DNA of 43,891 nt from the sequence record OR525704.1; one strand, given 5' to 3'. Under the pieces are notes generated by a model that was not told the origin of the DNA, made no database searches, and saw only the letters and a list, made by a program, of their open reading frames with translations. This DNA is from Escherichia phage vB-Eco-KMB35. Shown here one piece after another: positions 1-43,891 of the stretch; position 1 is the first letter of the stretch; each line of letters starts with the position of its first letter. Position numbers and translations under genes: made by a program.

Positions 1-1
1 C

Positions 2-1228
2 GGTATGCATTGCAAGTTTCCGGCATTCGTAGCTGGCTTCGGTACGGGTAAATCCGAAGTTATGTGCAACTCTGCACTACTCGACAGCATGGAAGGTGGT
101 AGCGATTCTATCATCGCCATGTATGAGCCGACTTATGACCTGGTGCGCCTCATCCTTGCACCGCGTATGGAAGAAAAGCTCACCGACTGGGGTATCCGGT
201 ACAAATACAACAAGTCTGACAACATAATCTATACGTCTTCCGGACAATTTGGGGATTTTGTTCTGCGTACACTTGATAATCCAGCACGAATCGTTGGCTA
301 CGAATCGTTTCGTGCGAAAATCGACGAGTTGGACACCCTTAACATGGAGCACGCCGAGCACGCGTGGAACAAAGTCATCGCCCGTAACCGCCAGTTGCCG
401 CGGACATATAAACCTATTACACCGAAACCTGCTAATACCGTTTCCGTGTTCACTACCCCGGAAGGATTCCGTTTCGTACATGACCGCTGGGTAGTCAAAA
501 AGAATCCAGGCTACGAGATGATTCAGGCGTCCACCCTGTCTAACCCGTTCCTGCCAGAAGATTATGTGCAGTCGTTACGCGACACATACCCAGGTCAGTT
601 GATTGACGCCTACATCAACGGCGAGTTCGTCAACCTGACGGCGGGGACTGTCTATTACGCCTATGACCGCAGGAAAAACAGCAGCCGCGAAACAATAAAA
701 CCAGGCGAGACTCTGTATATCGGGCAGGACTTTAACGTAGGCCACATGGCTAGTACAGTTTACGTGCAACGTGGCAAAGTCTGGCATGCAGTCGCCGAGT
801 TGGTGGATATGTTCGATACGCCCGATGTGGTGAGAGCCGTAACAGAGCGCTGGAAAAGTAAGGGCCACTATATCGTTATGTACCCCGACGCAAGCGGTAA
901 AAACCGTAAAAGTAACAACGCCAGCACATCTGATATTGCCCAGTTACAGCAGGCCGGCTTCGAAGTGCGCGCTAAATCGACAAACCCACCGGTTAAAGAC
1001 CGCGTAGCGGCGATGAATAAGGCGCTTGAATCTGGTATGGTCATGATTAATGAACAGGCTTGCCCTGTTACCGCACGATGCCTGGAGCAACAGGCTTACG
1101 ACAAGAACGGCGAACCGGATAAATCAGGCGGTGTGGACCACCAGAATGATGGAACCACATACCCTATCGCGTATGAAATGCCGATTCGCAAACCAGTTAT
1201 TAACGTCCCGGTGACTTTCGCACTTTAA
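2..1228 (+). CDS. terL: Terminase large subunit, C-terminal 408 codons; 5' end is at 43848..43891 if the genome is circularly joined
   Basis: ORF open from window position 2; N-terminal GFGTGKS Walker A-like motif; precedes portal gene; follows terS across the window junction. Confidence 0.8.
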   Translation, partial: GMHCKFPAFVAGFGTGKSEVMCNSALLDSMEGGSDSIIAMYEPTYDLVRLILAPRMEEKLTDWGIRYKYNKSDNIIYTSSGQFGDFVLRTLDNPARIVGYESFRAKIDELDTLNMEHAEHAWNKVIARNRQLPRTYKPITPKPANTVSVFTTPEGFRFVHDRWVVKKNPGYEMIQASTLSNPFLPEDYVQSLRDTYPGQLIDAYINGEFVNLTAGTVYYAYDRRKNSSRETIKPGETLYIGQDFNVGHMASTVYVQRGKVWHAVAELVDMFDTPDVVRAVTERWKSKGHYIVMYPDASGKNRKSNNASTSDIAQLQQAGFEVRAKSTNPPVKDRVAAMNKALESGMVMINEQACPVTARCLEQQAYDKNGEPDKSGGVDHQNDGTTYPIAYEMPIRKPVINVPVTFAL

Positions 1229-2758: not shown

Positions 2759-3835
2759 ATGCTATTAACTTTAGCGCCACAGGGTTTATCTATGAGCTTA
2801 CTTACATCCCTAATCAGCCATCAGATATGGCTGCAACGCACCGCATCCGGTGAAGTGAAAGACCTCACGCCGTTCATTCAGGAGATAAGGGATGAAATCA
2901 AACGGCAGGTGCTGTTATTCGGTGACGACGGTCGCAGCACTGCGCGACTGAATAAACTGTTACGCGACCTGGAAGAAGCACTAACCGGTATTACGGGTGA
3001 CTGGCAAACAAAGCTAACAGACGACCTTAAGGAACTGGCGGCGTACGAGGCTGAGTGGAACGTAAAGACACTGACCGCCAACGTAGACGCGGAATTTGTT
3101 ACGCCTACCGCTGAGCAGGTATGGGCCGCTGCCGAGTTTCAACCATTATCATTGAGCGACAAGCCCGTTGATTTCACTAAGCTGATGGACGGCTGGGGTG
3201 AAACGGAAGTAGCACGTCTTGTAACTGGAGTTAAGATGGGCTTTGTGCAAGGTCAAACCACACGGCAGATTGTTAAGAATGTTGTTGGCGCTGGTGGACT
3301 AGCCGACATCTCAGAACGTAACGCGACTACGGTAATCCGCACCGCGCTGTCCCACGTATCCAACGAGGCCCGTAACGAGACGTACCGCCAGAACGACGAC
3401 ATCATCGAGAAATATGAGTGGGTGTCAACTTTGGACAGCCGTACCAGCACGATTTGCAGGGCCAGAGACGGAATGACGTGGGAAATCGGTAAAGGTCCGA
3501 TGCCACCAGCCCATCCTAATTGCCGAAGTACCACTGCACCGGTAATCAGTTCAGAGTTCGACTTCCTTGATAAAGGCGCAAAACGTGCGGCTAAGGGTGC
3601 GGACGGCGGTACTCAGGTAAGCGCAGACACCACCTATTACGAGTTCCTGAAACAACAACCAGCATGGTTTCAGGACCAGGCGCTCGGTCCTGTTCGCGGT
3701 AAGATTTTCCGTAACAGCGGTATATCGCCGGAAGAGTTTCGCGTAATATCTGTAGATGGTTTCGGGAATCCGCTCACGCTTAAGCAGATGGCGGAACTCG
3801 ATAAACGTGTTGCTGATTATCTGAAAGGGGAATAA
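2759..3835 (+). CDS. Head morphogenesis protein (MuF / SPP1 gp7-like minor head protein)
   Basis: 358-aa ORF after portal; position and size typical of MuF-like proteins. Confidence 0.6.
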   Translation: MLLTLAPQGLSMSLLTSLISHQIWLQRTASGEVKDLTPFIQEIRDEIKRQVLLFGDDGRSTARLNKLLRDLEEALTGITGDWQTKLTDDLKELAAYEAEWNVKTLTANVDAEFVTPTAEQVWAAAEFQPLSLSDKPVDFTKLMDGWGETEVARLVTGVKMGFVQGQTTRQIVKNVVGAGGLADISERNATTVIRTALSHVSNEARNETYRQNDDIIEKYEWVSTLDSRTSTICRARDGMTWEIGKGPMPPAHPNCRSTTAPVISSEFDFLDKGAKRAAKGADGGTQVSADTTYYEFLKQQPAWFQDQALGPVRGKIFRNSGISPEEFRVISVDGFGNPLTLKQMAELDKRVADYLKGE

Positions 3836-4553: not shown

Positions 4554-4585
4554 TGAATAGTACCCTATTATATTGGGGTGTGCAA
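4554..4585 (-). promoter_or_regulatory. Promoter element family A (TTGCAC-N17-TACTAT), copy 1
   Basis: Minus-strand sense ttgcacaccccaatataatagggtactattca; 32 nt identical to 13678..13709; directly upstream of gene 4326..4529. Confidence 0.6.
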
Positions 4586-8177: not shown

Positions 8178-8690
8178 ATGCCGCTAATCGTGGAAACTGG
8201 GGCAATCGTCCCGAATGCCGACAGTTACATTAGTCTGGCTGACGCCCGCGCGTTAGCGGCTAATTATGGCCTTGAGCTACCGGAAGACGATACCGCCGCG
8301 GAGGTGGCCTTGCGTAACGGCGCCACTTATGTCGGGCTTGCGGAACCGCAGATGTGCGGTCGCCGGGTATCCGCCGAACAGTCTCTGGCGTACCCACGTA
8401 CGGGAACAACACTGAACGGCTTCACTGTAGCGGATAATGATATTCCGTCGCAGTTAATCCGGGCGCAGGTAATCGCCGCTGTTACATATGGCGCAGGAAC
8501 TGATGTTCGGGCTAACTCTGATGGGCGTTCCGTGCAGACTGAGCGCGTAGAAGGCGCGGTGACCGTGACATACTTCAACAACGGCAACAGCGGAGCTACA
8601 ACTGCGATTACCGCCGCGGACGACGCTTTACGCCCGTTACTGTGCAGCGGTCTTAACAATGGCTTCTCATTTAACGTGTACCGGGGTTAA
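8178..8690 (+). CDS. Head-tail connector / adaptor protein (putative)
   Basis: 170 aa; position between head and tail genes. Confidence 0.45.
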   Translation: MPLIVETGAIVPNADSYISLADARALAANYGLELPEDDTAAEVALRNGATYVGLAEPQMCGRRVSAEQSLAYPRTGTTLNGFTVADNDIPSQLIRAQVIAAVTYGAGTDVRANSDGRSVQTERVEGAVTVTYFNNGNSGATTAITAADDALRPLLCSGLNNGFSFNVYRG

Positions 8691-12133: not shown

Positions 12134-13260
12134 CCCAGCATCTCCGGTGAAATAGTTAAACGTGCGACCTCGCCATATTCGGCGCTATAAGTAATTACAT
12201 TTGCACTACGGCCTGACATCCACCCGCCGCGGGAGGCATAGGCGTCTTTAGCCGCTAAGGTGCGGTGTTGCTCAACAATCATGTTACGGCTTTCTACAAT
12301 CTTCTGGTGGTGCAGGTGGCCTACGTGGGCGTAGCTATAGACACTCTCACCGAACGCTTTGCGGAATTTGGCAATCATAACCGGTTCGATAGCATCGAAT
12401 CGCGCCTTATGCCCGTGGTGAAAGAACAACGTCGTTTTTCCGTGTTGCACCATCTTGTAAACATCCGGCGACGTATCGACAATCACTCGGCTGTCGTTCG
12501 AATATAAAACTGTGAACATTTCAGCCAGCCATACAGAGCCTACAGGGTCATGGTTCCCCTGTACGATAAGCAAGCGAACATTTTTATGTTTAACCAGTGC
12601 CATATCTACAACACGGCGTACCATACGAATCATGTAGCGGACGAGTTTCTGGTAGCGAGTGTCTGCGTCCAACACGTGACGCGACTCAGGTGTAACGGCA
12701 TCCAGACTATCGAAGTGCGCGAAATCACCCAGCAGGTTAATAACTCCTGTTCCTGCATCCGGTGCTTTCTGAAACGCCGCGTCGAACCAACGAGAGAACA
12801 GGTCTTCCGCAATCTTTATATCCCAGTCGTCGCCGCTCTCGTCGGCCCAGGCAAGCATACCGAGATGGAAATCAGATACCGTGTAAAGATTGAGTAGCTT
12901 GTCGTCGCGTTTGGCTCGAGTCGCTTTAGCCGGCGCAACTGGCGTAATCTCTGACTTCATGCCTTCAATCACGGCTTTCATCAACTCGACCTGACGTTCA
13001 GCGTCGGTGTCTGTCTTAACCCATTGCAACTTAGTATTGCCGAACTCGTCTACCAGAGACGACGTCCCTTTAATCTTGTAGCCGTCTGGGACAAGGTGGC
13101 TAACGTCACGCCCGTGGCCTACACCTTTCTTAGCCAGCTTCGCTTTACGGATACGAATAACTCGGTCTGAGATGCCGTATTTACGGGCGATGTCTACATT
13201 CTTCATCCCGGCGTTCAATTCTTCCTGTAACTGTTCGTCGGTTATTTTCTTCTGGGCCAT
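12130..13260 (-). CDS. HTH-domain / calcineurin-like metallophosphoesterase fusion protein
   Basis: 376 aa; N-terminal HTH (NVDIARKYGISDRVIRIRKAK); phosphoesterase motifs SDFHLG, LGDFAHFD, GNHD, HHGH, GHLHH in canonical order. Confidence 0.6.
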   Translation of the reverse strand: MAQKKITDEQLQEELNAGMKNVDIARKYGISDRVIRIRKAKLAKKGVGHGRDVSHLVPDGYKIKGTSSLVDEFGNTKLQWVKTDTDAERQVELMKAVIEGMKSEITPVAPAKATRAKRDDKLLNLYTVSDFHLGMLAWADESGDDWDIKIAEDLFSRWFDAAFQKAPDAGTGVINLLGDFAHFDSLDAVTPESRHVLDADTRYQKLVRYMIRMVRRVVDMALVKHKNVRLLIVQGNHDPVGSVWLAEMFTVLYSNDSRVIVDTSPDVYKMVQHGKTTLFFHHGHKARFDAIEPVMIAKFRKAFGESVYSYAHVGHLHHQKIVESRNMIVEQHRTLAAKDAYASRGGWMSGRSANVITYSAEYGEVARLTISPEMLG

Positions 13261-13677: not shown

Positions 13678-13709
13678 TGAATAGTACCCTATTATATTGG
13701 GGTGTGCAA
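13678..13709 (-). promoter_or_regulatory. Promoter element family A, copy 2 (identical to 4554..4585)
   Basis: 32-nt exact repeat; TTGCAC-N17-TACTAT in minus-strand sense, upstream of 13652 start. Confidence 0.6.
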
Positions 13710-19181: not shown

Positions 19182-21739
19182 TCCTGCACTACACGCGAAA
19201 CGCTGATGGCGCTTTCAACCGTACAAAACACGTCGGGATGCCGATGGAGTTTGTCGTTAACCGTATCCCGGACGGCGTTCCGGTACGCGTCTATCTTGGC
19301 GAGATTGGTGATGATACTGATGTTACAGACGACTTCGACGCGCTCAAAGACGAGGACGCCGTGTACCACATTATTGAGGGCGCTGGCGGCGGCATTGGCG
19401 ACGCCATCGGGAGTGTATTCAGTTTCATCCTTAAGCCAATCGCCAAATTGTTCGGGCTAAACACAGCGGCTAACGCTAATTATTCCGCTACCAACAATCA
19501 GGCTACGTCGCCTAACAACAGTCTCACCGACCGCTCAAACAAGCCACGACCTTATGAGCGTTCCTATGATATCTGCGGGACAGTGCAGACCATCCCCAAT
19601 GACCTGATGCAGACATATAAGGTGTTTAATGCCGCGGGTGCGCTTATTGAATATGCGTACTATGACGCCGGTCGAGGGTATCTGCATATTGAGGAAGACG
19701 GTGTAACTGAGGCAGATACCCGAATCAGCGAGATAACTGGCTCGTCGGTGACGGTGTATTCTCCTTACACTTCGCCGAATAACACCAGCACACCACAATT
19801 GCGTATCGGCGACCCTATAGACCAGAAATTGTACGTTACATTTAAAAACGCCGATGTCGATGGCGCTGTTCTTCCCGCCCCTAATGATATCGCTATAGAC
19901 GTGCAGGACTACACTGTCCAGCGGCAGGGAACAACCGGCGTTGTAGTAGGCGATGACGCTGGTTTCGATGAGTTTTTGGCGGTCGGGGACCTGGCATACT
20001 TCGATAACGTATATGCAGATACAACCCCAGGGTCTTTGGGTAATGAGGTTAACCTGGACGGGAGGTACACGGTTCTTTCGGTTAGTGAAACCACCCTTAT
20101 TGTGGACGTCAGTACAAATCAATCAGTATGGAACCAGCTAGGGGCGTCTGTGTGGTTTATAGGTGAAGAGGGTAACCATCTTATAGGCCCGGCGGACACT
20201 TACGCGGCTTCTCTCTCTGAATGGGCGTACATCACCCGCGGTACTGTCGACCGTGTTGTAGCCAATGTCGCCGCCAGCAACGGCATGTATAAATACAACG
20301 GCGACTATAACCGCGCTTCTGTGACGGTGGAACTGCAATACCAGATGGTCGACGAGTTGAAACAACCTGTAGGTGATGTATTTACCGTACAAGGAACCGT
20401 AACAGGCCGGAACACGGATTACACAGGGATTACTCTTTACGGAAGTTTACCAACTGCTTCCAGATTCCGCGCCCGTATGCGTCGTGTTTCTGACACCGAT
20501 AAAGATTTTGAAGGTACTGTTAGTGACGAGGTTACTTTCACTAATCTGTACGGACAGTCACTGGACACAACACCGCACTACGGCAACCGCACTACGGTGC
20601 ACTGCGCCCGTAAACAAACACCACGTGCGGCGGAGGTGTCCGAACCGGAACTGCGCATGATTGCTACTGAGATGTGTTACAAATACTTAGGCAATGGGGT
20701 GTTCGATACAGTAATGACCCCAAATACGCAGGCTGTGCAATCGCTAATCAGACTGGCGCGCGACCCGGCGGTTGGCAATCTGGAGCTGACAACAGCAAAC
20801 ATGGACAAGTTACTCGCCGTGCAGGAAGAAATCGAGTCCTATTTCGGAAGTAAGTTAGCAGGTCAGTTCTGCTACACGTTCGACGACTACGACACAACCA
20901 TGCAGGACATAGTTCAGACCATAGCGGAAGCCGAGTTTTGTACTGCGTACCGTAAAGGTGCGGATATTATGCTGCGATTCGACCGTCCGGTTGCAGGGCC
21001 TGAGATGGTGTTCACTCACCGTAGCAAAACTACCGGTACAGAGAAATGGACCCGCACGTTCAACGATTCGACAACCTACGATAGCCTGTCGTTCTCGTAT
21101 ATCGACCCGGATACTAACGTACAGGAAACGATTTATATCCCGGAAGAACTCGGAGCAAACACCGAGGAATATGAATCGAAGGGCGTACGTAACTATCAGC
21201 AGGCATATTGGCTGGCGTGGCGTCGCTACCAGCGCAACGCGTTAAGTAAAGTTGTCGTAGAGTTCGAAGCTACCGAAGAGGGGGCACTCGCTACACCGGG
21301 CGGCGTAATCAGCGTGGTTAAAGGCTCACGCATCGCGCCGCAGGATGGTTATGTTGTTGCCGTTAACGGGCTTACGCTTACGCTGTCTCAGCCAGTTACG
21401 TTTACCCCCGGAGACGACCACTCCATCATCCTCAAGAAGCGCGATGGCTCTGTGCAGAGTATCTCGGTTATCAAAGGAAGCCACGACCGCGAGGTGATTA
21501 TGCTCTCCGCGCCGGAAGAAGCAATCTACACGGGGAATAGCGCGCTAAAAACTGAGTTTTCATTCGGCAACGAAGCAAGGCATAATGCCCAGAAGATAGT
21601 TGTTTCTTCAATCGACCCCGGCGACGACCGCACGGTCAAGATTACGGGCTACAACTATGATGACGGATTCTATAAATACGACGGCGTCGCGCCATACGGC
21701 AGCGGTTTCTCCGACGGATTCAGCAATGGTTTTAATTAA
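19172..21739 (+). CDS. Tail tip / host specificity protein (gpI-like N-terminus fused to J-like body)
   Basis: 855 aa; Gly-rich GAGGGIGDAIGSVFSFILKP segment like gpI C-terminus; start uncertain (TTG 19172 or ATG 19238). Confidence 0.5.
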   Translation: MAIILHYTRNADGAFNRTKHVGMPMEFVVNRIPDGVPVRVYLGEIGDDTDVTDDFDALKDEDAVYHIIEGAGGGIGDAIGSVFSFILKPIAKLFGLNTAANANYSATNNQATSPNNSLTDRSNKPRPYERSYDICGTVQTIPNDLMQTYKVFNAAGALIEYAYYDAGRGYLHIEEDGVTEADTRISEITGSSVTVYSPYTSPNNTSTPQLRIGDPIDQKLYVTFKNADVDGAVLPAPNDIAIDVQDYTVQRQGTTGVVVGDDAGFDEFLAVGDLAYFDNVYADTTPGSLGNEVNLDGRYTVLSVSETTLIVDVSTNQSVWNQLGASVWFIGEEGNHLIGPADTYAASLSEWAYITRGTVDRVVANVAASNGMYKYNGDYNRASVTVELQYQMVDELKQPVGDVFTVQGTVTGRNTDYTGITLYGSLPTASRFRARMRRVSDTDKDFEGTVSDEVTFTNLYGQSLDTTPHYGNRTTVHCARKQTPRAAEVSEPELRMIATEMCYKYLGNGVFDTVMTPNTQAVQSLIRLARDPAVGNLELTTANMDKLLAVQEEIESYFGSKLAGQFCYTFDDYDTTMQDIVQTIAEAEFCTAYRKGADIMLRFDRPVAGPEMVFTHRSKTTGTEKWTRTFNDSTTYDSLSFSYIDPDTNVQETIYIPEELGANTEEYESKGVRNYQQAYWLAWRRYQRNALSKVVVEFEATEEGALATPGGVISVVKGSRIAPQDGYVVAVNGLTLTLSQPVTFTPGDDHSIILKKRDGSVQSISVIKGSHDREVIMLSAPEEAIYTGNSALKTEFSFGNEARHNAQKIVVSSIDPGDDRTVKITGYNYDDGFYKYDGVAPYGSGFSDGFSNGFN

Positions 21740-26706: not shown

Positions 26707-26994
26707 TTAACTATAATAGCCCGCTATTAGGTCGTCAACCTGTTTAAACGAACCAACGACAAAAACATTTGCACCACGTTTACGCATCCGCTCGTGCTCT
26801 CGTAACTGGTGCGGGTCCGGCTTCGTGTTTTCGTCTTTCTTAACCTCGACGAACCAGATGATGCCACCAGGGAGAATTACCAGCAGGTCGGGGGCGCCGG
26901 AGCGCCCCTCATAAGACAGCTTACGAACGAGGCCACCAATGGCCTCGAATCGCTCTTTTGCGTATTTCTGCACGCGCCCCTCAGGCGTACTCAT
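26707..26994 (-). CDS. VRR-NUC domain nuclease
   Basis: 95 aa; PDLLVI...VEVKK PD-(D/E)XK-type motif. Confidence 0.7.
   Translation of the reverse strand: MSTPEGRVQKYAKERFEAIGGLVRKLSYEGRSGAPDLLVILPGGIIWFVEVKKDENTKPDPHQLREHERMRKRGANVFVVGSFKQVDDLIAGYYS
26709..26738 (-). promoter_or_regulatory. Promoter element family B (minus-strand TTGACG-N17-TATAGT) overlapping the 3' end of the VRR-NUC gene
   Basis: 30-nt element aactataatagc-NNN-ctatt-NNNN-cgtcaa shared with 30898 and 33447. Confidence 0.45.
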
Positions 26995-27207: not shown

Positions 27208-27892
27208 CTCTACATTCTCCTTCAGGCCACCTATTAGGAAAAGACGGTATATGTGAAACTTCTCTCGCCGCTTTTATTCTTTTAATGGCGGGACCTATCT
27301 CCGTAACCATTTCAATGAATGTAAACCGGTGTCCTCTGGTAAGATTACATGTCTGACAACAAGAAACGCAGTTAGATACTATGTGCCCGCTTGTATTATC
27401 TATGCGGTCTACCCCGACTTTTGTAGTGCTTCCGCAATAATGGCATGGCTGTGATATTAGTTTAATAACGCTTTCCAGTGTTAAATCGCAGATAAGCCCT
27501 TTTCCTGAATCTGCTCTTTTGTATCCTAACAAAAGCGCGTACGCCCGCGTCCTTTGGTCCTTATTCACCAGTTCCCTGCGTTGCTTGTTGAGACACTCCC
27601 GGCAATCTTTCCTGATATGAGAGCCATTACTTTTATTTCCTTTCCTGAAGTTTTCCTCTGTTAAAGGTTTTACCTCCCCACACTTTCTGCATTTAACAGG
27701 CTTCCCAGTGAAAACATACCAAGGGCTTTCTCGTCTGGATTTACCTTGTAATTTAAGTTTTTCGTCATACTTTTCCTTCCTGTTAGCATTTACACACTCT
27801 TTACACCAGCGTTGCAGCCCGAGGCGCGTTGACTTTGAAAAATACTCTGTAGTCGCCGGTTTATCTTCGCCGCATCTTGAACACTTTTTCAT
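27197..27892 (-). CDS. HNH endonuclease with two N-terminal CxxC zinc-ribbon repeats (homing-endonuclease-like)
   Basis: ATG 27892 with GGAG RBS; repeated C-R/K-CGE-KP...C-E-C modules; C-terminal CHYCG...DRIDN...H HNH motif. Confidence 0.7.
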   Translation of the reverse strand: MKKCSRCGEDKPATTEYFSKSTRLGLQRWCKECVNANRKEKYDEKLKLQGKSRRESPWYVFTGKPVKCRKCGEVKPLTEENFRKGNKSNGSHIRKDCRECLNKQRRELVNKDQRTRAYALLLGYKRADSGKGLICDLTLESVIKLISQPCHYCGSTTKVGVDRIDNTSGHIVSNCVSCCQTCNLTRGHRFTFIEMVTEIGPAIKRIKAAREVSHIPSFPNRWPEGECRDAK

Positions 27893-30897: not shown

Positions 30898-30927
30898 AAC
30901 TATAATAGCTAACTATTCAGGTGTCAA
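30898..30927 (-). promoter_or_regulatory. Promoter element family B (minus-strand TTGACA-N17-TATAGT)
   Basis: Near-consensus hexamers, 17-nt spacer, about 60 nt upstream of gene start 30839. Confidence 0.6.
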
Positions 30928-33446: not shown

Positions 33447-33476
33447 AACTATAATAGCGAACTATTCACATGTCAA
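33447..33476 (-). promoter_or_regulatory. Promoter element family B (minus-strand TTGACA-N17-TATAGT), early leftward promoter
   Basis: Consensus hexamers with 17-nt spacer; palindromic core TAATAG-N4-CTATTC. Confidence 0.6.
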
Positions 33477-37091: not shown

Positions 37092-37123
37092 TTGCACACC
37101 CCAACATAATAGGATACTATTCA
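37092..37123 (+). promoter_or_regulatory. Promoter element family A (TTGCAC-N17-TACTAT), copy 3, rightward early promoter
   Basis: 30/32 identity to copies at 4554 and 13678 in opposite orientation; 30 nt upstream of ORF 37155. Confidence 0.6.
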
Positions 37124-37154
37124 CTTATCGAAACGAGACAGAGGAGTGAGGGTT

Positions 37155-40123: not shown

Positions 40124-40432
40124 TTGGATAAATTTACTGAAACAGTGACAGGCTGGCTTCTCGCTGCCGCACTAGCCGGAGGGGTAATCGGACTAAGGCA
40201 ACATAAGTCCGCTATTTCCGGCCCTATCGACGGCTTCTGCTTTATTGCAACTGGCTTCACTTGCGCCGTATTTGGCGCACCTCTCGCAGCTCAATGGTTT
40301 GGAATCACGGGCGACCGTGAAATCGCAGGCCTGGGCTTCATTATCGCTATTCTCTGGATGCCTATCTATTCCCGTCTGTCCGGTATCGTCGCCGGAGAAT
40401 ACATCGCACGTCGAGGAGGCCCGGATGAATGA
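40124..40432 (+). CDS. Holin (three predicted TM segments), TTG start
   Basis: 102 aa with three hydrophobic helices; immediately upstream of second TM protein and endolysin. Confidence 0.6.
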   Translation: MDKFTETVTGWLLAAALAGGVIGLRQHKSAISGPIDGFCFIATGFTCAVFGAPLAAQWFGITGDREIAGLGFIIAILWMPIYSRLSGIVAGEYIARRGGPDE

Positions 40433-40697
40433 GTTATTCTGGTTCTGCGGTATGCTGGCAATCGGAGGCACATCGCTGTTTAATGTGTATCATCCCAGCG
40501 TTGACGACGGGCTATTTGGCCGGGTGCTCTATATCCTGACTGCTATTGTCTGCGCCGCAGGATGTATCCACCTGTTACAGGGCAGCATGTCTCCGACGCT
40601 GCCTGAGACATTAATCACATTAGTTGCGCTGCGCCAGATTCGTCAGGCGTGGCTGTCATACGGAGGACATAAGCGTGTCTCGAAATATTTCAGATAA
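40425..40697 (+). CDS. Second holin-like / antiholin membrane protein (two TM segments)
   Basis: 90 aa from ATG 40425 overlapping holin stop (ATGAATGA); two hydrophobic helices. Confidence 0.5.
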   Translation: MNELFWFCGMLAIGGTSLFNVYHPSVDDGLFGRVLYILTAIVCAAGCIHLLQGSMSPTLPETLITLVALRQIRQAWLSYGGHKRVSKYFR

Positions 40698-41163
40698 TGG
40701 ATTGCATTTCACCGCTGCGTTCGAGGGATTCCGCGGAACTGCATACCGCGCTACGCCGAACGAGAAGTACCTGACTATCGGGTACGGGCACTATGGGCCG
40801 GACGTAACCCCGGGTAAGACCATCACACCGGGGCAAGGCCTCCTGTTACTGAATCGCGATATGGCTAAGGCCGTAGCTGCGGTTGATGTGGCGGCACACC
40901 ATTCGCTGACACAGGCACAGTTCGACGCTGTGTGCGACCTGGTCTATAACGCCGGTGCTGGTGTGATTGCAGCTGCTACCGGCACAGGAAAGGCGCTGCG
41001 TTCTGGTGACATCGCGACACTGCGGGCTAAACTGGCGCTGTTTATCAACCAGAACGGCAAACCGTTACTTGGTCTGCGCCGCCGTACTGCCGGGCGTCTT
41101 GCACTGTTTGACGGCAAGCCGTGGCAGGAGGCGGAGGCCATTGGGCGCGCGGTGAAAGGTTGA
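40675..41163 (+). CDS. Endolysin, T4 E-like lysozyme (glycoside hydrolase family 24-like)
   Basis: GTG 40675 with GGAGGA RBS; FEGFRGTAYRATPNEKYLTIGYGH matches T4 lysozyme EG-R--Y-D--G--TIG-GH catalytic region. Confidence 0.8.
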   Translation: MSRNISDNGLHFTAAFEGFRGTAYRATPNEKYLTIGYGHYGPDVTPGKTITPGQGLLLLNRDMAKAVAAVDVAAHHSLTQAQFDAVCDLVYNAGAGVIAAATGTGKALRSGDIATLRAKLALFINQNGKPLLGLRRRTAGRLALFDGKPWQEAEAIGRAVKG

Positions 41164-41229
41164 CACCTGAGACTAATCCGACGATACTTAAATCACCCCC
41201 TGTTCCATACCTCTGCTCTCCAGTTTTAT

Positions 41230-41260
41230 CCCGGCCCTGACCCAGCCGGGATTTTTTTTA
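41230..41260 (+). terminator. Intrinsic terminator cccggc-cctgaccca-gccggg followed by T8
   Basis: GC stem plus long T-run after endolysin. Confidence 0.7.
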
Positions 41261-41281
41261 TCTATTTTCTGCAATGACTAG

Positions 41282-41310
41282 TTGACTATTACCTACGACC
41301 CTATTATATT
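41282..41310 (+). promoter_or_regulatory. Promoter TTGACT-N17-TATATT
   Basis: Good -35 and -10 hexamers with 17-nt spacer directly after terminator. Confidence 0.5.
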
Positions 41311-41343: not shown

Positions 41344-41647
41344 ATGAGTAACGTACAGACAATCGCAATAACCGAGGAACTTGAAGCCAAATGTATCGCA
41401 TGGACTATGGGTAATGACCAGGTTGCTATGCGTAAATTTCCAATGAAAATCACAGACATCGAAGCGTAATGACCAGGTTGCTATGCGTAAATTTCCAATG
41501 AAAATCACAGACATCGAAGCATTCAAAGATGCACAACTGATGGCACGTATTGCCGTTGGCAACCTGAGCAACAATATCCCGGCGGACGCGTTCTGGTTCG
41601 CTGCTATGCAGACACTGAAAGCAGCTTATGCAGGAGAGAAGAAATGA
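41344..41647 (+). pseudogene. Small gene split by a 55-bp tandem duplication (N-fragment 41344..41469, C-fragment restart 41483..41647)
   Basis: Removing one 55-bp copy restores a single 82-codon ORF; with both copies the frame shifts and stops at TAA 41467. Confidence 0.55.
41411..41520 (+). repeat. Perfect tandem direct repeat, 2 x 55 bp
   Basis: 41411..41465 identical to 41466..41520; flanking bases differ. Confidence 0.95.
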
Positions 41648-41841
41648 AAGTTAAAGCCGCTAAAATTCTCTGGTTAGCCGCCCTTGACTATGTCACAGAG
41701 GGTAAAGTGTATGATGTATACAACCCGACAGCTACTGGTTTCGGTTATATAGACTCCGACGACGACTGCCATATTTTCATAGACTTTGGTAACGATGACG
41801 GTGATGGTTTCCACGGCGTTAAATGGGAGGTTGTAGAATGA
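41644..41841 (+). CDS. Hypothetical small acidic protein (65 aa)
   Basis: ATG overlapping upstream stop. Confidence 0.5.
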   Translation: MKVKAAKILWLAALDYVTEGKVYDVYNPTATGFGYIDSDDDCHIFIDFGNDDGDGFHGVKWEVVE

Positions 41842-41999
41842 GCGAACAAGGTCAAGTAAGCCAACCATTACGAGTAGGCCGTAAGGTGAGTCACACCCCG
41901 TTCCCGACACGCGAGGAACTGATGAAACGTAACAGTTTCCCTGGGCCGGACAAGAACAAGTATCTCAACCGCATGTGGGGAGAGCGTAAAAATGACTGA
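41838..41999 (+). CDS. Hypothetical small protein (53 aa)
   Basis: ORF below track cutoff; RBS GGGAGG; ATGA overlaps at both ends. Confidence 0.4.
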   Translation: MSEQGQVSQPLRVGRKVSHTPFPTREELMKRNSFPGPDKNKYLNRMWGERKND

Positions 42000-43348: not shown

Positions 43349-43858
43349 ATGAAGCTGAAACTTAAGCAGCCATCGCCAGAGGTGGTACAAGCTGCACATG
43401 AAGAAGCTGTTAGCGCAAACCGTCGCCGTAAACGACCGCGCGGTAAACAGAGCCTTTATCAATCATCCCGTAATTCCGCCGCGTTGTGGGACCCGGGCTA
43501 TTGCGATGCACTAATCGAGTTCTTCGACCGCACGTCGTGGGAGCTTGTGCCTACGTCTAAGGGTGACGAACGCCCGCTGATTCAGGATAAACCACCGTCA
43601 CTGGCCCGCTTCGCCTTACACATCGGAGTCACTATCCCGATTATTAAGCTTTGGCTGCGTGAGATTCCCGCATTTGCAGAAGCCTATGAAACGGCGCAGG
43701 CGCTGGAAGAGGCGTACTTCACCGAGACAGGGGCCGCGGGCATCTCTGCTACGTTTGCTGCTGCGAAACTGGGGTTGAATAAAACAGTTGTCGCCGAAGA
43801 AGTACGCGACGAGCCAATCAGCGAAGTAACAATTAAGGTGGTGTCCGGTGAACGTTAA
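43349..43858 (+). CDS. terS: Terminase small subunit (putative)
   Basis: 169 aa from ATG 43349 (RBS AAGGGG); basic N-terminal region RRRKRPRGK; immediately precedes and overlaps terL start. Confidence 0.5.
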   Translation: MKLKLKQPSPEVVQAAHEEAVSANRRRKRPRGKQSLYQSSRNSAALWDPGYCDALIEFFDRTSWELVPTSKGDERPLIQDKPPSLARFALHIGVTIPIIKLWLREIPAFAEAYETAQALEEAYFTETGAAGISATFAAAKLGLNKTVVAEEVRDEPISEVTIKVVSGER

Positions 43859-43891
43859 TATCACGGCAACGGAGCCGCAAGGCGCGTTTCT
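43848..43891 (+). CDS. terL: Terminase large subunit, first 15 codons (continues at window position 2)
   Basis: GTG 43848 with AAGGTGG RBS 6 nt upstream; reading frame is continuous across the window junction into ORF 2..1228. Confidence 0.6.
   Translation, partial: MNVNITATEPQGAF

Follow-up and report, generated by a model that had tools for sequence, protein, structure and literature searches.

The interrupted gene and its surroundings

The window considered here is the whole stretch of DNA that was analysed, namely the complete genome given in the 43,891-nucleotide record OR525704 of Escherichia phage vB-Eco-KMB35 (hereafter KMB35), an E. coli siphophage of the genus Kagunavirus (Guernseyvirinae) whose closest records are approximately 94–97% identical to it. 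Directly after the lysis cassette, in which the endolysin ORF (40624–41163) gave a Pfam match to Phage_lysozyme, the plus strand carries two short annotated ORFs. The first, of 41 aa (WQN07686.1; 41344–41469), extends from an ATG at 41344 to a TAA at 41467–41469 and corresponds to the N-terminal part of a gene cut short by a frameshift. The second, of 54 aa (WQN07687.1; 41483–41647), begins with an ATG at 41483, located 13 nt past the stop codon of the upstream ORF, and corresponds to the C-terminal part of the same gene, including the entire conserved core of its family (PHROG 2180). Between them these ORFs accommodate a direct repeat in which positions 41411–41465 and 41466–41520 are exactly identical. 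Removal of one copy produced a single 249-nt, 82-codon ORF, the real gene of this locus (41344–41647 on the plus strand as deposited; 41344–41592 in collapsed coordinates) and the first to follow the lysis cassette. A previous sequence-only reading had proposed a 41-codon ORF running from ATG 41344 to TAA 41467 as the product of a 55-bp frameshift, a restart at ATG 41483 giving a 54-aa fragment ending at 41647, and the recreation of an 82-codon gene on deletion of one copy; our reading of the ORFs agreed with the first two of these proposals, and the collapsed translation was indeed 82 aa in length.

The same reading had reported two identical adjacent 55-bp units at 41411–41520, and these were confirmed by two routes: Tandem Repeats Finder returned an array with a period of 55, 2.0 copies, 100% matches and a score of 220, and our own scan of the whole window for perfect tandem duplications with periods of 8–399 bp recovered the 55-bp repeat alone. 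It was also the sole such Tandem Repeats Finder array in the 43,891 bases, a result with which repeat-family analysis agreed. The origin by chance of a perfect two-copy array of 110 nt in 44 kb is excluded, and the feature is consequently real in the deposited record. With unit boundaries marked by a slash, the array and its context read ..ACTATGG/GTAATGACC...CATCGAAGC/GTAATGACC...CATCGAAGC/ATTCAAAG.., and the junction between the copies reads ...ACATCGAAGC/GTAATGACCAGG... in the deposited record. Identity extended by 0 bases beyond the two copies on both sides (flanks TATGG/GTAAT and GAAGC/ATTCA), such that the junction microhomology was 0 bp, with no base common to either flank. The secondary structure of the repeat DNA was ordinary (z = +0.95), a value by which DNA secondary structure was ruled out as a cause of slippage.

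Two candidate signals for transcription were located on the plus strand in the interval between the endolysin ORF and the interrupted gene. A terminator-like hairpin at 41230–41259, 3' of the endolysin gene, consists of CCCGGC, a 9-nt loop and GCCGGG followed by T8; it was read by eye, having been missed by the scan because its loop is longer than 8 nt, and on sequence grounds would mark the beginning of a new transcription unit. A putative sigma-70-like promoter at 41282–41310 (TTGACT, 17-nt spacer, TATATT) was detected by scanning with 10 of 12 matches and occupies a region conserved in relatives. This promoter-like sequence supports a predicted transcription of the gene by unmodified host RNA polymerase, and the description of the gene as 'early' in the sequence-only reading is consistent with it.

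Several further observations were made on these and comparable signals elsewhere in the window. Four independent IMG/VR contigs of approximately 44 kb (L014, L015, L027 and L028), all from metagenome 3300045988, terminate at one end or the other precisely at the T-run that follows the endolysin hairpin, at a point equivalent to around position 41251 of the window, with T-run lengths of 8 to 11. These ends probably reflect a systematic contig break caused by the combination of hairpin and homopolymer, a physical end being the other possible source. A 30-nt motif (AACTATAATAGC..ACTATTCA..GTCAA) was found in four copies (26709–26738, 30898–30927, 33447–33476 and 37102–37131), and a perfect 32-nt repeat (TGAATAGTACCCTATTATATTGGGGTGTGCAA) in two (4554–4585 and 13678–13709). 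Both resemble the promoter 5' of the interrupted gene (CCCTATTATATT), and together they are likely to represent a family of conserved phage promoters.

Gene family and single-copy relatives

The collapsed 82-aa translation was 98.8% identical to the Bas71 gene, and aligned without gaps with the intact 249-nt CDSs of Bas70, Bas72, XY2, Golestan, NTEC3 and DUEC01. When used as a query, the 82-aa form matched PHROG 2180 with an E value of 2.8e-27, residues 29–82 aligning with profile positions 1–54 of 56; searches of Pfam, NCBIfam and the PDB with the interrupted gene gave no match, leaving PHROG 2180, a family of unknown function, as the only one recognised. The interrupted KMB35 gene is thus a member of PHROG 2180, the 49-aa 'MKITDIEAF...' family of the Guernseyvirinae, from the 49-aa members of which KMB35 and its close relatives differ in having 33 additional residues fused N-terminally to the core, which gives the 82-aa form.

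The distribution of the family reflects this modular construction. Searches with tblastn located members in 624 phage records, at least 80% of the 82-aa form being covered in just 47 of them; residues 34–82 constituted the conserved part in most of these 624 homologous loci, and most homologues were 49 aa in length. Inspection of the ORFs at 42 IMG/VR loci distinguished three natural layouts: the 49-aa core alone, beginning MKITDIEAF...; a 65-aa upstream ORF beginning MSNV..., linked through TAATG to the 49-aa core; and the fused 82-aa form, which is that of the KMB35 clade. L019 (10001–10347) is one of the IMG/VR loci read for the architectures of the family, the Jerseyvirus members of which have a differing N-terminus of approximately 15 aa. 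As a group these architectures exemplify the fusion and fission of small genes among close relatives.

The copy number of the repeat in other phages was established with a 70-nt probe spanning the junction. Matches were obtained in 19 records, and in every one of the 15 that covered at least 80% of the probe the unit was present as a single copy, the probe aligning in two pieces whose combined span was only 54–55 bases. Alignment with Bas70, DUEC01, Golestan, NTEC3, Bas72 and XY2 gave a clean gap of 55 columns in 6/6 cases. The search for related genomes with a single-copy intact ORF, which the sequence-only reading had put forward as a check, was thereby answered in the affirmative for all of the relatives compared (15/15 probe records and 6/6 aligned genomes). 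No tandem duplication in this gene was present at any of the 42 IMG/VR loci, and a 32-mer across the junction had no match in IMG/VR, the JGI metagenomes or the GTDB genomes. Exact matches to the 41-aa and 54-aa products occurred in the NCBI record alone, and the collapsed 82-aa sequence was absent from the collection; neither the two fragments nor the collapsed protein were found in the Logan/ENA assemblies, and a look-up with the tailspike likewise yielded no contig. The searches thus brought to light no second, independent assembly made from the reads of this phage. Searches of E. coli genomes yielded no copy of the region, and a prophage origin was ruled out, the E. coli chromosomes containing nothing similar.

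Assembly history and sibling genomes

The KMB35 record originates from a study published in 2024 (Arch Virol; PMC11162368), in which SPAdes 3.10.1 served as the assembler and was followed by 'genome zeroing' on a reference phage, K1G in the case of this genus; trimming of contig ends is unmentioned (PMC11162368). The record itself bears the mark of this second step. Its origin (1–70, plus strand) is at the 5' end of the large-terminase gene, represented by an ORF at 5–1228. The K1G record starts at the terminase ATG, that of KMB36, a second Kagunavirus from the same study, has 2 nt ahead of the homologous ATG, and that of KMB35 starts where its more divergent terminase begins to align with K1G, confirming that the KMB35 contig was re-opened on K1G. 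The large-terminase ORF can also be read in frame across the record ends (43848–43891 plus 1–1228) to the ATG at 5, from a GTG at 43848 that overlaps the end of a small-terminase-like ORF. This GTG is probably the start of the gene, and the record origin appears to cut the gene, leaving its first 16 codons at the opposite end of the sequence.

The period of the KMB35 repeat, 55, is exactly a standard SPAdes k-mer size. Automatic k selection by SPAdes for 2x300 reads, the format of the KMB35 MiSeq data, reaches 127, and an overlap of 55 bp would therefore imply a run option with 55 as its largest k, such as --sc, --meta or an explicit -k. Nothing of this kind is stated in the source paper (PMC11162368). 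Overlaps of k length at the ends of circular SPAdes assemblies are documented: a terminal overlap of 55 bp in phage 107 was 'manually removed' ahead of re-opening of the genome (PMC10281100), one copy of a 55-bp repeat present at both contig ends was taken out of phage Carin-5 (PMC12686479), and an overlap of 127 bp obtained with k = 127 was termed an assembly artefact (PMC9331655). With these cases the KMB35 repeat has in common its perfect identity, standard k length, circular assembly and arbitrary position; they differ in that their overlaps were recognised at the contig ends and removed, whereas in KMB35 rotation came first, leaving an internal tandem that was annotated as two genes. A further parallel is afforded by internal repeats of approximately 79 bp in short-read Shovill/SPAdes assemblies of przondoviruses, identified as artefacts by Sanger sequencing (PMC10438801). 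These were likewise made by the assembler, recurrent within a workflow and responsible for spurious gene disruption, but were approximately 79 bp rather than 55 bp in length, were located near true direct-terminal-repeat regions, and were proved experimentally, whereas the KMB35 case is argued by sequence comparison.

Seven genomes of the study, comprising KMB35 and six siblings, were scanned for perfect tandem duplications. Four of them, KMB35 included and three genera in all, each contained a single perfect 55-bp tandem duplication, the locus affected being unrelated from one genome to the next. In KMB36 (OR525703; Kagunavirus) the repeat begins at 41155 (41155–41264), inside a class II holin gene; in KMB41 (OR539216; Murrayvirus) it begins at 21484 (21484–21593); and in KMB47 (OR424385; Vectrevirus) at 41879 (41879–41988). 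A gene was interrupted in all four genomes, and in each case collapse of one copy restored the ORF. The 'putative holin' annotated in KMB36 lengthened from 83 aa to 102 aa, as found in the KMB35 holin ORF (40124–40432) and in other relatives; the second tail-fibre/tailspike ORF of KMB47 increased from 57 to 570 aa, its intact counterpart being annotated at 41782–43965 in KMB14; and the interrupted ORF of KMB41, at a site annotated with a pair of overlapping 'hypothetical protein' CDSs on the minus strand (21256–21522 and 21344–21715), increased from 123 to 134 aa. The site of the KMB36 repeat was single copy in KMB35 and eight other loci, and that of KMB41 in seven related Murrayvirus-like records. 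The 55-bp junctions of the siblings extended by just 0–1 base, as chance predicts.

The remaining three genomes were less uniform. KMB46 (OR525699; Warwickvirus) contained a perfect 50-bp tandem duplication beginning at 3371 (3371–3470), in a stretch free of annotation that follows the tail-fibre genes; this duplication may be a 55-bp overlap from one end of which 5 bases were trimmed before joining, while neither KMB14 (OR424384; Vectrevirus) nor KMB25 (OR424386; Tlsvirus) contained a perfect tandem duplication. A different feature was seen in KMB14, in the form of a 106-nt exact direct repeat (copies starting at 12870 and 13062; 12870–13167) around a 62-nt exact copy of 27642–27703; situated in a gap between annotated CDSs, it looks like a local misassembly.

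A control was provided by 48 related loci, totalling 638 kb, that had been fetched before the siblings. No 55-bp tandem was present among them, and the sole tandem duplication longer than 24 bp was one of 56 bp in Salmonella phage Jersey (KF148055/NC_021777; positions 8498–8613 of the fetched locus). It was apparent from these combined data that an exact 55-bp repeat in 4/7 genomes of one pipeline, distributed over three unrelated genera, has no plausible biological explanation; in addition, at least two of the 55-bp repeats fall in genes that are probably required by a plaque-forming phage.

Origin and implications of the duplication

The explanation which best accommodates these observations, and of which we are highly confident, is that the duplication is an artefact of assembly and finishing, consisting of an untrimmed 55-base SPAdes end overlap that was kept through rotation. 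Assembly artefact was one of the three options offered by the sequence-only reading, the emphasis of which was on the two biological ones, and is the one overwhelmingly favoured by the SPAdes k length of the repeat, the pipeline of SPAdes plus rotation, and the presence of 55-bp repeats in three siblings. Headful packaging has been predicted for the relative Shashou (PMC6776780), and a genome packaged in this manner is permuted and assembles as a circle. From the circularly permuted KMB35 genome SPAdes would have generated one contig whose first 55 bases were the same as its last 55 (k = 55). Rotation of this contig to the K1G start would then have joined the old ends head to tail, and with the overlap left untrimmed the 55-mer would be present twice in tandem at 41411–41520. 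Having landed within a gene, the join would introduce a false frameshift, 55 not being divisible by 3. We infer that the SPAdes run ended at k = 55, that the KMB35 contig was circular, and that the join is located at the 41465/41466 boundary. The first copy (41411–41465) would accordingly correspond to the closing 55 bases of the SPAdes contig, or to its opening 55 had that contig represented the opposite strand, and the second copy (41466–41520) to the other end of the contig.

The repeat combines a k-size length, perfect adjacent copies without microhomology, and a record produced by a de Bruijn graph assembler followed by rotation, with the same signature in sibling genomes at unrelated positions, its absence from relatives, and the disruption of a conserved gene. 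The points that tell against an artefact are that two of the seven genomes, KMB25 and KMB14, were free of tandem duplications, that the KMB46 duplication was 50 bp and not 55 bp, and that the phage group may itself contain natural duplications of such a length that shift the reading frame, the 56-bp one of Jersey being a possible case. The effect of the pipeline is therefore a frequent rather than a uniform one. The duplication is almost certainly not present in the phage itself, which most likely possesses one copy of the 55-bp unit, an intact 82-codon gene and a unit genome of 43,836 bp, the single copy being deduced.

The principal alternative is a real and very recent tandem duplication that became fixed in the sequenced stock, for example during plaque purification, a reading to which we attach only a slight probability. 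It would divide the gene into ORFs of 41 and 54 codons, and the core could then be translated by re-initiation 13 nt past the stop. The two copies are identical, as would be expected of a recent event, and the gene looks dispensable or modular, since conservation is mostly confined to residues 34–82, many homologues are only 49 aa in length and two-ORF layouts occur naturally; from this modularity, as seen in the core-only conservation and the natural arrangement of 65-aa ORF, TAATG and 49-aa core, it follows that a split could be tolerated. There is also the precedent of the frameshifting 56-bp tandem duplication in the phage Jersey record. Like that of KMB35 it is similar in size, composed of perfect copies, not a multiple of 3 in length, and responsible for splitting a small ORF, in this instance one located 5' of the holin which is divided into pieces of 98 and 43 aa; at least one relative, T102, seems to have the unit only once at the same site. 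The Jersey identity, however, runs 4 bp (CGGT) past the two copies, a footprint of slippage between short repeats, whereas the KMB35 repeat has no microhomology and is exactly 55 bp; because its length of 56 is even, the Jersey repeat is not a SPAdes k value. The microhomology in Jersey points to a natural event of the slippage type, or to an error of some other kind.

Set against a real duplication in KMB35 are a length exactly equal to a SPAdes k value, the recurrence of a perfect 55-bp repeat in three siblings, of three genera, that passed through the pipeline of the same laboratory (disrupting a holin, a tail fibre and one other coding region), and a junction that, unlike that of Jersey with its 4-bp extension, has zero microhomology. 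No short direct repeat of the type associated with slippage or microhomology-mediated duplication was found at the boundaries, and the junction was missing from every source of other isolates and metagenomes in which support for a natural duplication was sought, namely the phage collection, IMG/VR, the JGI metagenomes and the GTDB genomes. The proposal that a recent duplication had given rise to a pseudogene is thus opposed by the evidence from both the pipeline and the siblings. Even with the record taken at face value, 'pseudogene' would be too strong a label, because the 54-aa ORF retains the entire conserved core of the family. Were the duplication real, it would by chance have returned a fused 82-codon gene to a two-ORF layout resembling that of 65-aa ORF, TAATG and 49-aa core, and would offer a snapshot of small phage genes in the course of splitting and fusing, an outcome that we regard as very improbable.

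The other biological option raised by the sequence-only reading, a hotspot of copy number that toggles the gene on and off in the manner of phase variation, with one-copy and two-copy genomes coexisting, is considered to be extremely unlikely. In its favour is only the formal point that a 55-bp change in copy number shifts the reading frame. Two copies were found in no relative (15/15 probe records were single copy, and none of the 42 IMG/VR loci was duplicated), and there are neither flanking short repeats nor secondary structure to drive slippage. Collapse from two copies to one would be easy by recombination, but no mechanism is available to remake the same junction, and the sibling genomes account for the feature without recourse to biology.

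Short direct terminal repeats of a linear genome look like tandem repeats once the genome ends are joined, but that the 55-bp repeat is a genuine terminal repeat of a linear packaged genome joined in this way has almost no probability, and was ruled out by its position in a conserved ORF that is continuous in all of the relatives compared, by the headful packaging predicted for a relative (PMC6776780), and by the recurrence of the same 55-bp length in unrelated genera of the study, inside holin and tail-fibre genes.

With the duplication assigned to an untrimmed assembler overlap, there is nothing biological to pursue in it, and its value is practical. The record OR525704 is most likely 55 bp longer than the genome it describes (43,891 versus 43,836), and WQN07686.1 and WQN07687.1 are most likely two spurious proteins in place of a single protein of 82 aa. 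The same error appears to be present in at least three sibling records, namely OR525703, with its broken holin, OR539216, and OR424385, with its broken tail-fibre gene; OR525699, with its 50-bp duplication, may also be affected. Searching rotated phage records for perfect internal tandem repeats with a unit of 55, 77, 99 or 127 bp would provide a cheap and specific screen for errors of this type, and such k-length repeats should be filtered out before genome scans are used to call pseudogenes, phase-variable loci or duplications.
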